A stretch of DNA of 64,000 nt. Origin: Vermamoeba vermiformis (Eukaryota). The notes under the pieces are model-generated. The model was not told where the DNA came from. It did no database searches and saw nothing but the letters and a program-made list of their open reading frames with translations. Position 1 is the stretch's first letter, and each line of letters opens with the position of its first letter. Positions 59,009 to 64,000 of this stretch are shown piece after piece. The position numbers and the translations under genes were made by a program. Where the stretch lies: positions 124,001 through 188,000 of the forward strand of contig JBEWZL010000036.1 of NCBI GenBank assembly GCA_045837725.1. Direction: 5' to 3'.

Positions 59009-59419
59009 TTATTTCTTGATCTCCTCGGCGAGAGAGGCGTTGTACTTGGTGACGGCCTTGGTACCTTCTGAGACGGCGTGCTTGGCCAATTCACCAGGGA
59101 GCAAGAGGCGAACAGCGGTTTGGATTTCGCGAGAAGTGATGGTCTGTCTCTTGTTGTAACGAGCAAGACGACCGGCTTCTTGGGCAATACGCTCAAAGAT
59201 GTCGTTGACGAAAGAGTTCATGATAGCCATGGCCTTGTTGGAGACACCAGTGTCGGGGTGGACTTGCTTCAACACCTTGTAGATGAAGGTGCTGTAGCTG
59301 TTGTAGTTTCTTCGGCGAGAGTGATCCTCACCCTTTTCACCCTTGGCGGCCTTCTTGACCTTTTGAGTCTTGGGCTTGTCGGCACCCTTTTCGGCTCCTT
59401 CCTTCTTTCCGCGAGGCAT
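59009..59419 (-). CDS. H2B: Histone H2B (intronless)
   Basis: [14 protein letters not shown]-type core ([66 protein letters not shown]). Confidence 0.98.
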
Positions 59420-59500
59420 TTTGTTTTAAACGAGTTGTGTTTGTCGTAAAATGAATTGATTTGAGTAATGAAAAAATTTTGTTTTTGATGTTGTTGCTTC

Positions 59501-59514
59501 TCCGTGATTGGTCA
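59501..59514 (-). promoter_or_regulatory. Putative CCAAT box upstream of H2B
   Basis: Minus strand TGACCAATCACGG about 90 bp upstream of the ATG. Confidence 0.4.
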
Positions 59515-59902
59515 GATTTTTTGTTTTTGGATTTTTAAGATACACTTTACCCAGATTTATCCTGGTGTGAGTGCTTTCACGAAGGAGAAGGCGGGAACCG
59601 ACACCCACGTGTCCTGCGTTTTCTTGGTTTGACGATCCCCAGTTTGCCTCTTCCTTGCACCTTTCTACCACTTGATCTGCTCTTTTATCGATATGCACAT
59701 CCCATGCCTTTAATGGCCCGTAAAAAACCACCAGAATCGCAGTGAAGTACGTAGACGCTTACTGAATCGTACCGAAGGCTCGAATTATTTATTTAAATAT
59801 CCAGTAATTATTTCATTTTGCGGTCGATCGAGGGAAGATTGACGAGCAAGTCTGGTCTTGGCTTACGAGCATAGTCTGACCTCTTATTACTAGCTCCTCC
59901 TG

Positions 59903-62552
59903 ATGAACATCAGAATTGACGAAGGTCACCACGATAAGCGTAGCTGGGAACCTTGGAGTCAAGAGGAAATTAAAGTTTTTTTCGATTCGATCGTAAAATA
60001 CGGCAGAAACTGGGCTCTCATCGCGAAAGAAATTGGAACAAAGCGCCAAGAACAAGTAATTATTATCCCGATAATTATCAAGCCTTAATCAATTAATCAA
60101 TAATTCTATTTTTATTTTGAAAATAATGGCCAATTTAATTTCCAAAACCTCGTTTGCTTTTGCTCAAATCACACTAATATGTGATAAATAATTGATTATG
60201 TAATATTGTTAAATTAATGGCATTATTTAAATTCGTGTGAACGGTCAGCGGCCTCATCTCTTTACTCTCACTTGTGCACGTACTAATAATACTTTCCACT
60301 TCAGGTTAGAACATATTTTTATAGATTACTTAAGAAGGTCACTAAATTGCTCGAGCCACTTCACTTTACTTTCGATTCTCGCGATCGGATGGACACTTTG
60401 ATCGCACTCGTTTGCTATTGGGAAGCTAAGCGCGATCTTAATATACCAGAGGCGCCAAACCCATCTGCAACAGCGAGCTTAGCTAGAGCAGTGCGCGACA
60501 GAATTATTAAGTAAGTTCTAACAATATGGTTGAATTTCGTTTGAAAGTTTAGAGTACTTTGAACTTCCGTAATTAGTAGAAAGTGAAGTTCAAAGTAAGG
60601 AAATATGACCGAAAGAGCAAACAGTATTAATATTTATTTTCTCCAAAGACAACGCAAAGAGCTAGAACTGATGCGGTCGCGACGACTTCCAGCACCCGAG
60701 AAAATTACATTCCAGCTCGTTCCTATAAGCAATGACATGGCGTCTGACTTATCGCAAGCTGGGTGTAACCCGCGATTACAGTAAGCGTCATTTTGGTCTT
60801 CTAAGAAATTAATTCTTGAAATTTACTAGCCGTTACACGAGCTAATTAAATTCGTGCAGGCTCACTGTTAAGTCAAGCAAGCGACTGTCGTCCATCATTC
60901 AGCACTTAATGAGCAAGTGGACACGTCCTGGCAACGAAGGCAAGCGTGTCTCAATTGCCACTGGCCCTATTCGGTTGTTTCCGCACCTAAAAATGGGACA
61001 TCCGGGTTGGGGAGTTGAGGACGAGGAAGTTACAGCGCTGAAGTTGTTTCATGCACTAGGGTGTCCTGAGATATGCAAAGTAGATTATAGTTGGAAGGCT
61101 GTACCAACTCAACCGACGCAACAACAGCATCTGGGATCGGATCTTAGTGCAGCGGAGCTCGAGCAATATTATCAATTATTCAATAATGCAGAAGGAAATG
61201 TTGCAATCAAGAATGAAGGAAGCAATCATAGTGGCGAGAATAGTTATTCACCAGAAGGCCACTATTTTACGCTGGATGATTTTCATCACTCGGATGAGGA
61301 CCACTTTGACGATCTGAACATCAAGTTGTCGTCGAATGATGCCTTTGGATTCGAGTCAGGCGAGAGTCACAGCTACAGCGTCGAAGAAAGACAAGTTATA
61401 CTGCCGGACATTTCCATGAACACGTTAAACAATTTGTTGAACTCCGGTGGAGCGAGCACGAATCAAAGAACAGCTTGAATACCAGTCAAAGCGGACTCAA
61501 TCTATCTCCTGTATCGATCAACAACGCCAGCATCAACAACGTCACTGTTCAACAACAAGAACGAGAGAATGCAAACCAGCGAAGCATGTTGAACGCAAGT
61601 TTTTCCATACTTCACGATGCTTCGTCAATGGGCTTTGATGCGTCTAACGACATGTTTGGCACTGGCTTCAAGCACGCTACGTCATCGTTCTCAACTGCAG
61701 TGAATAACTTGAAGGTCGAGAAGATCCAATCCGATCAGTCGCCGCCACCGTTCCTCGGAACTAACAATGGCACCAATGGGCAAGGCTATCCATCAAGGCC
61801 ATCTCCTGTTACTAACGCTAAGCGAAGGTACGTTGGAAACATAACCACAATTTTTTCGATCGCAAAAGCGGATCAAAAAACCGAATCTGGATGCGCGAGT
61901 TGTTTAACCTCGTTAGATCGGCGCAGGAAGTACTTGTGGGCGTTCTTTGTTAGTGTTCGCAAGTAGTGACCCGAACACGATGTTGCAAAACGTCTCGGGC
62001 ACGACCACACTAACAAGAATGCACCGCTTCCCGTCCGATCAGCGAAGTTAAGCTTGTTCAGGCCTTCTTAGTACTGGGGTAGGAGACTACCTGGGAATCG
62101 GAGGTGTTGTGCTCTTTACTTTTTGCTTTTTTGCTTCGCTGCTTGGCTACCCGTACCCTTATTTCGCGTTATCATTATATCACCGAACATCTTTCGGCCT
62201 CCACATCCAGATTCGAATCCGATTTCACTTTTTTTTGCTTATTGTTTTCAGACGGCATTACTAACGCGCAGTATTTAGATTACAACCGGAGTCCTTATTC
62301 AAAGAGGATTCGCTGGATGTTAGCGAGGTTCCTTTACGCGCATCAGCTGGTTCACGTAACAACGGCCCAAGTACCAACAACAAGACGTCTCTCGGTGTTC
62401 GACTCAACGAAAATGGCAAGCGAGACTTGCAGTCGTTCATTGAGGAGACGTCTTTCGTGCCATTTCGCTCTCAGGTATTCGGATCTGGCAGCACGCAGGA
62501 AGACAACGACGGTTCTGCTGCTAAAAGGCGAAAGCTGGATTCGGTGCCTTGA
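59903..62552 (+). CDS. SANT/Myb protein, Cramped (CRAMP1)/TKI1-like; apparent frameshift near 61465
   Basis: WEPWSQEEIKVFFDSIVKYGRNW..IGTKRQEQVRTYFYR; KITFQLVP..GCNPRLQLTVKSSKRLSSIIQHLMSKW; last exon ends AKRRKLDSVP-stop. Confidence 0.75.
61997..62115 (+). rRNA. 5S rRNA: 5S ribosomal RNA gene (intronic)
   Basis: 119 nt, colinear with eukaryotic 5S: ACGACCAC..GAA..CCCGTCCGATC..GAAGTTAAGC..GGCC..TTAGTACTGG..GGAGAC..CCTGGGAA..GGTGTTGT. 5' GGGCAC pairs with 3' GTGCTC; T-runs follow (Pol III terminator). Confidence 0.95.
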
Positions 62553-62798
62553 GCGAAGCTAGCAATTTAATTTCAGTGTACAATTACTACCCTTTCAACC
62601 GTAGCTTTAGCGAGAAAGCCAACCGATCTTTTCTTGTTTGAAGTTACGGATGGAGCTGTCGTGAGCGAAGAAGTGCAGTCGTTTAATTACAACTGCCTTC
62701 TTTAGCTTAGTTTTAAATCAGAGATATCAAAACAAGCGATAGACTCCTCAATGTAAATAAACGGATCAAATTATTTATTGTAACCCGATCTTCGTTTG

Positions 62799-64000
62799 TT
62801 ACTTTCTCCCGTGTTCCGCGCTAGCATTTTTAGTACCAGAGTTGTTACGTGCGATCCATTCTCTCAGGTCAGTACTGCTAATAATGCGACAGGAGTGCTT
62901 CCAGACAATTGTCAACGATTTCAAATTGAACTTTGATACTCGAAGTCCGTTCACATGATTGATGCCGTTGATGCCTGTAAAAGTCAGTTGTGCATACGTT
63001 ATAATGGTACTAATTACCTTCTTCGTTATTCTCGACAACAGCAGCCTCAATCTCCGGATCATTCATCAGCCTACATCCGTCCGAGTTCGGACACCTCGTT
63101 ACAATTTGAATCTATGCAATAAGTGATTAATCAAATCATTCTCATATGAAAATAAGTCTCTTACATCTTTTTCAGCGATTGTAGTGTCAATAATATCAAG
63201 GAAGTGTTTGACGCCTTCATTACGTGTTTCAATGCTCTCAATCAGCTCTTGATGCTTCTTGCCACCAAGTACAGCTAAAGGAAAATAATTAAGCCGGCAC
63301 TTAGACATAAAGGATATCAAGGCATACTGAGCACAGCTACTACAAGCTTTTTCTTGGCAACCAAAGTACCGAGGGTGATGAGCATTTTATGATCGAAATG
63401 AAGTCTGTCAAACGTTCCTAAGTGTTGAAAATGAGTTTAATTCTTGTAAAATTTGAACATTTTGCTTATTACCTGCTAATGAGACGCAATTGAACGATTT
63501 GTAATTGAATTCGTGAGGCGTGTGATCTGTGGGCAAATTAGCTTCACCCAACGACTTTGATAGTTTGTGAATATGTTCTTCTTCTATTTGTTCTAATAAT
63601 AAACTCGGAAGATTATTTTTCTGCCGCTTTTCATTCCATTGATTAAAAACTTCAGTGCCTAAAGCGAACTAGTTAGATCAGTTATCGTTATATTTCTATC
63701 AATTAACTTACTATATGCAAATACATGCGTAATATCGTAAATTAAATATAGACGCACGCTATTGGGGAGTAAAATCGTTAAGTTTCGCGAGTAATCTTGG
63801 GCTGTTCGCTGGATGGCTGCAAAATGACCGTATACTCGAATCAGCACTTGTTGTGCTTGTTTAATCTATTATATTAGCGCGGGTTAGATGCATGCTACGC
63901 ATTGTACTCTTTAAGTTTCAATACGGCGTGAAAAGGTTGAAATTCGGTTTAAATATTTTAAAAAATACTTAAAAATCATACGTTAATAGGCCACGCCTCT
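62799..64000 (-). CDS. Phosphopantetheine adenylyltransferase-like nucleotidyltransferase (5' end beyond window)
   Basis: Spliced VSLAGTFDRLHFDHKML, KKHQELIESIETR, DPEIEAAVV, NGLR, IISSTDLR. Confidence 0.7.

Follow-up and report, generated by a model that had tools for sequence, protein, structure and literature searches.

Here, we describe a complete 5S rRNA gene that lies inside a spliced intron of a protein-coding gene of the amoeba Vermamoeba vermiformis. The gene was located in a 64,000-nt stretch of contig JBEWZL010000036.1 (positions 124,001 to 188,000, forward strand; hereafter, the window, with positions counted from its first letter), where it occupies positions 61997-62115, wholly within an intron (61828-62278) of a cramped/CRAMP1-like gene and on the same strand. 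The splice sites on both sides of it are in use, that is, this is a nested intronic gene in a host transcribed by RNA polymerase II (Pol II). [quoted passage not shown] In this lineage, the presence of 5S genes in introns is real and recurrent, yet it is what a large dispersed family is expected to produce in a compact genome rich in introns: where each window-sized stretch contains about one 5S gene, introns are numerous and intergenic spacers are short, some intronic copies have to be expected. The features in question are as follows.

61828-62278, plus strand: intron 4 of the host gene, 451 nt, with the donor GTACGT, the branch-like sequence TACTAAC at 62258-62264 and the acceptor AG at 62277-62278
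61958-61996, plus strand: conserved upstream unit of the 5S family, comprising a 17-nt motif (CGCAAGTAGTGACCCGA, 61958-61974) and a 22-nt spacer that ends in CGTCTC just before the RNA start (+1)
61997-62115, plus strand: 5S rRNA gene, 119 nt
62116-62132, plus strand: 3′ trailer with T runs (TT, T5 and T6), likely Pol III terminator

The 5S gene is full length. The match to the Rfam model RF00001 covers model positions 1-120 of 120, without truncation, with a score of 104.7 bits against a gathering score of 38 (E 6.6e-22), and is the sole Rfam match at gathering score in the whole window (cmscan); when 59400-63000 was scanned again at a permissive cutoff (E up to 1), nothing besides this match emerged, and ARAGORN detected no tRNA genes in the window. 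Both the structure line of cmscan, with its closing helix I, and the minimum free energy (MFE) fold (-41.6 kcal/mol, with a weak z-score of -1.84) display the canonical three-arm 5S shape. The internal control region of type 1 Pol III genes consists of the A box, the intermediate element and the C box, and the conserved model positions in the corresponding region 50-97, with the boxes placed as in Xenopus, are matched in the cmscan alignment. Downstream of the gene, TT (62116-62117), AC, T5 (62120-62124), GC and T6 (62127-62132) follow in this order, so that T5 and T6 supply the run of at least 4 T that is expected shortly 3′ of a type 1 gene. Given that Pol III terminates in T runs, 62116-62132 likely functions as its terminator. 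Thus, the complete 119-nt 5S gene with a closing helix and a T tract, as described in the original prediction, is borne out by the full coverage of the model, the MFE fold and the T5 and T6 runs.

The evidence that the surrounding intron is actually removed comes from assembled public sequencing runs and from related proteins. Among the public runs aligned to 61300-62800, X1 consists of DNA contigs, whereas X4 and X8, from different studies, consist of contigs that we guess to be derived from RNA; X21, a run of raw RNA reads, contributed none of its 9,627,492 records to the alignment and thus carries no weight either way. In both RNA-type runs (2 of 2), one contig carries a spliced joint from 61825 to 62277 that skips 451 nt, with 255 letters on the shorter side; after a shift of the cut by +2, the skipped segment has GT..AG ends and becomes the intron 61828-62278. 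By contrast, none of the contigs of the DNA run X1 contains the 61827/62279 joint, and the intron is covered continuously. The depth of X4 and X8 over the unique flanks of the 5S gene within the intron is zero. The reading frame is kept across the junction, where AG and A join into an Arg codon, and the resulting peptide (...KRR/LQPESLFKED...KRRKLDSVP, the slash marking the junction) is present in 3 of the 8 related proteins, namely, P0122, P0123 and P0133. P0122 (574 aa, 92% identical) is a complete open reading frame (ORF) from a transcriptome under a Vermamoeba vermiformis EukProt accession, an identity that places the window in this species complex or a close relative (Amoebozoa), and P0123 (577 aa, 90% identical) comes from contigs of about 2.0-2.35 kb, which are too short for the 2.65-kb unspliced gene. 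Another 4 of the 8 proteins (P0121, P0124, P0125 and P0129) run past the 5′ splice site (...KRRYV...), as genomic predictions do; P0124 and P0125 are encoded on genomic contigs of 487-521 kb from a relative that is about 90% identical. The remaining protein, P0128, stops before the junction. A search for relatives with host exon 4 found 3 proteins among 585 candidates.

Together, the spliced contigs and the three junction-spanning proteins fix the intron coordinates to the base. The junction that had been put forward as a check is present in X4 and X8 and absent from X1, and the host transcript does not end before 61990, the outcome that was to have placed the 5S gene between genes: the transcript is spliced across it. 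The description of the intron as unusually long stands in part. It is the longest of the host introns (249, 138, 79 and 451 nt), but not by an order of magnitude.

The window copy belongs to a very large set, as the DNA run makes clear. Summed X1 depth over the 5S gene, contributed by 272 contigs, is 115,000-330,000, compared to 324-350 on the flanks, that is, several hundred to about 1000 times as high, where summed contig depth is not a copy number and is read as "very many". These contigs cease to resemble the window upstream at 61959-61961, in at least 17 contigs, and downstream at 62117-62131, and the loose ends beyond agree with one another only at 0.53-0.62, pointing to many different flanks. 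The shared unit thus measures about 172-175 bp and includes 36-39 nt of upstream sequence, the gene and the T-run trailer. The window contains 1 copy in 64 kb, a density that fits several hundred to a thousand copies only for a genome of some tens of megabases, the presumed size range of this genome. The family probably comprises hundreds of near-identical scattered copies, "hundreds" being an estimate. The assignment of the window 5S gene to a dispersed set, tentatively made in the original prediction, is borne out by the X1 depth, the many different flanks and three further copies (L001, P0138 and P0139; see below). As a practical matter, the 5S units break short-read assemblies.

The context of the further copies is informative with respect to both the unit and its surroundings. 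A scan with a 31-nt 5S pattern identified one locus among metagenome contigs, L001 (3,732 nt), and gave no matches in viral contigs and none in the genome contigs scanned. The L001 5S gene (131-13, minus strand) scores 104.7 bits, the same as the window copy, and differs from it in no aligned column; it is followed, as in the window, by CTCTTTAC and a T run (T8), in which the contig ends. Upstream of it on the same strand, at a distance of 256 nt, is a tRNA-Ile(AAT) gene (461-388, minus strand) with its own T run, and upstream of both is an aminopeptidase-P-like exon that ends at GTAAGT. The match to Peptidase_M24 extends no further than profile position 95 of 208 at this site, and the rest of the domain must therefore lie past the end of the contig. 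Judging from the donor side, the tRNA-Ile and 5S genes probably share one intron of the aminopeptidase-P-like gene, at least 569 nt long, both in the sense orientation.

A protein search with the translated upstream-plus-5S frame recovered 2 proteins among 24 candidates. P0139 (149 aa, encoded on an 80-kb contig) consists of a phosphofructokinase exon (PF00365, profile positions 215-269 of 277) followed by VSV... and then by ...ASSDPQTKLQCVSGTTTLTRMHRFPSDQRS; P0138 (124 aa) has no Pfam match and ends in ...GGSDPNTMLQSVSGTTTLTRMHRFPSDQRS. Both tails are translations of the upstream motif, the spacer and the 5S gene, that is, these copies are located shortly 3′ of coding sequence and on the same strand. 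The 5S-tail peptide of P0139 is 81% identical to that of the window, with the motif kept, and represents the copy of a relative. P0121, the NCBI prediction for the window's own locus in another assembly or allele, ends in ...ASSDPNTKSL, which places the 5S unit in that version of the intron as well. In all three proteins (P0121, P0138 and P0139), the C-terminus is translated intron plus 5S sequence (...SDPNT...VSGTTTLTRMHRFPSDQRS); these tails are gene-calling artefacts caused by 5S units just behind exons, so that 5S units mislead gene callers. It should be stressed that this search detects only sense copies near an exon and that the window was flagged as intronic in the first place, leaving L001 as the sole unbiased sample. 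A HMMER search of the representative protein library with a 64-aa antisense ORF over the 5S gene produced 12 matches at E ≤0.001 (P0140-P0151; 133-3327 aa, 28-54% identical), each with 2-11 repeated stretches that match the antisense 5S frame, a frame sufficiently open for such "proteins" to be predicted; none of the 12 is a near-identical 5S copy, and they look like translated tandem 5S arrays from other organisms.

The sequence immediately upstream of the gene is part of what the copies share. Both the window and L001 contain a single match to the 17-mer CGCAAGTAGTGACCCGA, in either case upstream of the 5S gene, compared to a chance expectation, with up to 3 mismatches, of 0.09 for the window and 0.01 for L001, and in P0121, P0138 and P0139 the translated motif (SSDPNT, GSDPNT or SSDPQT) is located ahead of the tail that derives from the 5S gene. 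The spacing between the motif and +1 is 22 nt in the window and, judged by peptide length, the same in P0138 and P0139; CGTCTC just before +1 is shared as well. This conservation fits a promoter element, a homogenised DNA unit or both; as it already begins before the RNA start, a simple retroposition of 5S RNA is excluded. Given the conserved upstream sequence and the terminator formed by the T runs, transcription of the window copy by Pol III appears most likely. The 5S gene has the same upstream unit and terminator in hosts that are unrelated, it is intact and an exact match to L001, none of the X1 variants listed reaches 10% of depth inside it, and the host is weakly expressed (exon depth: X4, about 10; X8, about 8.5), all of which argues for the autonomy of the 5S gene.

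In the mechanism that we favour, each 5S copy would be a compact unit of about 172-175 bp, composed of a 39-nt upstream piece, a 119-nt gene with the internal control region and a T-run trailer. The unit in the window would have arrived by insertion into an older, shorter intron. Pol III would then transcribe this 5S gene on its own, from internal and upstream promoter elements, and stop at the T runs, while Pol II would read through it and the spliceosome would remove it with the rest of intron 4. We infer both the activity of the window copy and its origin by insertion.

Several observations weigh against this reading. Because the 5S copies are identical, reads are not assignable to any one locus. 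In L001, the motif is 65 nt, not 22 nt, away from the 5S gene, which is awkward for a distance-dependent promoter element and argues against a strictly distance-dependent one. The sharp 5′ edge of the repeat suits a duplicated or mobile DNA unit equally well as a promoter. The introns of L001 and P0139 have no visible acceptor, the contig or the ORF ending first, and summed depth gives no copy number, so that the size of the family is an estimate. Finally, X4 includes a 274-nt contig (depth 24.8) in which unique upstream sequence, 119 nt long, is continuous with another 5S copy; provided that X4 is RNA, at least one copy is contained in a longer transcript, and this transcript exceeds the host mRNA in abundance. 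The contig, which aligns to 61946-62103, lacks 3 nt of the 17-nt motif and differs from the window at 61980, 61981, 61989 and 61990.

Another possibility is that 5S RNA is cut from the excised intron or the pre-mRNA, in the manner of an intronic small nucleolar RNA (snoRNA), instead of being made by Pol III. Such processing would accommodate the X4 contig, the sense orientation of the 5S gene at all 4 loci seen, a biased sample, and the 12-bp stem that brackets the 5S unit in the intron (see below). However, eukaryotic 5S RNA is known as a primary Pol III transcript, and a weakly expressed host could not supply ribosomal RNA. Moreover, every copy, whatever its host, has its own T-run terminator and upstream motif, whereas a snoRNA-like gene would have no promoter or terminator of its own, and the conserved unit begins 39 nt before the RNA, in a region that processing does not need. 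We therefore regard this possibility as highly improbable.

Although structurally intact, the window copy might be a silent passenger, either untranscribed or repressed by Pol II read-through, that contributes nothing to ribosomes. The aligned runs give no locus-specific evidence of expression, inactive members are tolerated in large families, and the A at position 61990 (-7) of the window is the minority form, with G in 26,563 of the 34,940 depth units of X1. Against this stand the identity of the gene to L001 at every aligned position, the intact upstream motif and terminator, and the low expression of the host, which make a silent copy improbable.

Alternatively, the unit could be a mobile, copy-and-paste cassette extending from the 17-nt motif to the T run, which spreads and is inserted or kept preferentially in introns of expressed genes, in the sense orientation; its position in introns would then be characteristic of the family instead of a matter of chance. 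The sharp upstream edge in at least 17 X1 contigs agrees with this, as does the context of all 4 loci where it is visible (the window, L001, P0138 and P0139), with the 5S gene located 3′ of a coding exon on the same strand. Subtracting the 172-175-nt unit would leave an intron of about 276-279 nt, near the 249-nt intron of the same gene, and the motif is kept in the copy of the relative that is represented by P0139. However, the ascertainment of these loci is biased, with L001 as the single unbiased sample. Furthermore, neither a target-site duplication nor terminal repeats of the unit were found, nor an A tail or a long interspersed nuclear element (LINE) tail, the boundary upstream of the RNA start does not allow for simple retroposition of 5S RNA, and promoter conservation together with gene conversion would give the same pattern. 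Thus, preferential settlement in introns is unlikely to be the explanation. If it were, host transcription might keep the cassette accessible, intron stems might keep the enlarged introns spliceable, and a ribosomal RNA gene family would be systematically housed as Pol III genes within Pol II genes.

The preferred reading of an autonomous, dispersed 5S gene combines two arrangements that are each known elsewhere. Zwick et al. [quoted passage not shown] Such scattered genes are called rare in the accessible part of a report that cites them for Neurospora, Schizosaccharomyces pombe and Acanthamoeba (PMC1635290). As in Vermamoeba, the 5S genes of Acanthamoeba castellanii, Neurospora crassa and S. 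pombe are single scattered units, neither tandem nor linked to rDNA; the same part of that report does not mention their nesting in spliceosomal introns, in contrast to what we find here (PMC1635290). Yarrowia lipolytica likewise has scattered 5S genes, about half of which are described, in the portion of the source that was available, as fused to tRNA genes (PMC2566860). L001, too, has an upstream tRNA gene on the same strand, but 256 nt separate this tRNA-Ile from the 5S gene and a T run of its own follows it, which makes it a neighbour and not a fusion partner, and the window contains no tRNA gene.

The second arrangement is the nesting of a small independent Pol III gene wholly in an intron of a Pol II gene. 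In Caenorhabditis elegans, 264 of the 608 tRNA genes are nested in introns, according to an excerpt of the relevant study (PMC3342880), and Pol II can be subject to interference from Pol III units in introns, as stated in part of a report on an antisense MIR in an intron of Polr3e (PMC7328520). The nested genes in these cases are tRNA genes, small nuclear RNA (snRNA)-type genes and short interspersed nuclear element (SINE) units, whose promoters are of type 2 or type 3, whereas the gene described here is a type 1 5S gene; in L001, the two kinds meet, with a tRNA-Ile gene in the same presumed intron as the 5S gene. Mammals have dispersed 5S pseudogenes and 5S-derived SINEs, which, like the window copy, are located off the main array and, in some cases, near or in Pol II genes, as far as the accessible text of one study goes (PMC3261910). 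By contrast, these mammalian copies are degenerate and do not fold as 5S RNA, whereas the window 5S gene is full length, folded, an exact match to another copy and preceded by a conserved upstream sequence. In the same text, 5S rDNA is described as capable, in mouse cells, of tethering a locus to the nucleolus and dampening a linked Pol II reporter (PMC3261910).

Neither a 5S gene in a spliceosomal intron nor the organisation of nuclear 5S genes in Vermamoeba was found described in the literature searched, which covered few subscription journals and no supplements. The window thus provides a clean, RNA-supported case in which a spliced intron houses a ribosomal RNA gene, the lineage supplies at least two or three more, and the intron nesting that is known for tRNA and snRNA genes is extended to 5S rRNA. 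The window also allows a first sketch of how nuclear 5S genes are organised in Vermamoeba, which is in wide use as a host for giant viruses and Legionella: the copies are very many and scattered, and they have a 39-nt upstream unit in common. If sense-oriented intronic placement turned out to be a rule, Vermamoeba would be a natural test bed for interference between Pol II and Pol III and could be used to examine whether 5S DNA tethers host genes to the nucleolus, an effect taken from the part of the mouse study cited above (PMC3261910).

Apart from the 5S unit itself, the intron contains a perfect 12-nt inverted repeat that brackets the unit.

61882-61893, plus strand: left arm of the inverted repeat
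62204-62215, plus strand: right arm of the inverted repeat

When the intron is folded (MFE -141 kcal/mol, z-score -3.85, to which the 5S gene itself contributes in part), the two arms are predicted to pair, and of 1000 shuffles that preserve its dinucleotides, only 2 yielded a perfect inverted repeat of at least 12 nt. Pairing of the 12-bp stem would bring the 5′ splice site to within about 98 nt of TACTAAC. We raise, as a hypothesis only, that the stem may aid splicing. The inverted repeat could have marked a miniature inverted-repeat transposable element (MITE), but its arms are at single-copy depth in X1, hence not those of a multicopy transposon, and they have no flanking target-site duplication. 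The 10-mer TTACTAACGC is found twice, in the exon 19 nt before the splice donor (61809-61818) and at the branch site of the same intron (62258-62267); as a target-site duplication, it fails on a chance expectation of about 0.15 and on the protein sequences of P0122 and P0123, in which it is unconserved. A 5S-derived SINE or retro-pseudogene, which would begin at the 5′ end of the RNA and have an A-rich or LINE-type tail and target-site duplications, does not agree with copies that start 36-39 nt before +1 and end 3′ in a T run, with no flanking direct repeat.

The host gene, read against P0122, has five coding exons separated by the four introns given above.

59903-60055, plus strand: exon 1, with the start codon ATG at 59903 and a Myb/SANT domain; the N-terminus matches P0122 and P0123
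60305-60510, plus strand: exon 2, with putative splice sites placed by comparison with P0122 and P0123
60649-60780, plus strand: exon 3, with putative splice sites placed by the same comparison
60860-61827, plus strand: exon 4, delineated by ORFs, with a frame break near 61450 (seen from contig indels at this position and from P0121)
62279-62552, plus strand: exon 5, the last, with the stop codon at 62550-62552, supported by ORFs, the spliced contigs and protein comparison

The Myb/SANT domain (PF00249) was detected by Pfam on both exon 1 and P0122, and PF27753 (Cramped_PI3K_like) is assigned to P0122 and P0123, which are 92% and 90% identical to the host, in precomputed annotation. On these grounds, CRAMP1-like, as the host was originally called, is a fair name. 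The nearest named cluster, "Protein cramped-like" (score 0.85), is a lead only.

Within 61440-61460, the host ORF of the window changes frame. At 61450, X1 contigs either lack 2 nt (depth 291.8) or carry an additional T (depth 132.6), and the RNA-type contigs have one extra base; a change of +1 or -2 nt restores a single host frame in either case, and P0121 reads ...SGGEHESKN... at this place. The window's own form is spanned by no aligned contig. The frame break is probably an artefact of assembly or haplotype merging and not the mark of a pseudogene.

An intronless H2B-type histone gene (59009-59425, minus strand; Pfam Histone, 82 bits), with a lysine-rich N-terminal tail, is arranged head-to-head with the cramped-like gene, with 477 nt separating the two start codons. 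A 2-oxoglutarate-dehydrogenase-like fragment is at best 48% identical to any entry of the protein collection, which thus contains no close relative.

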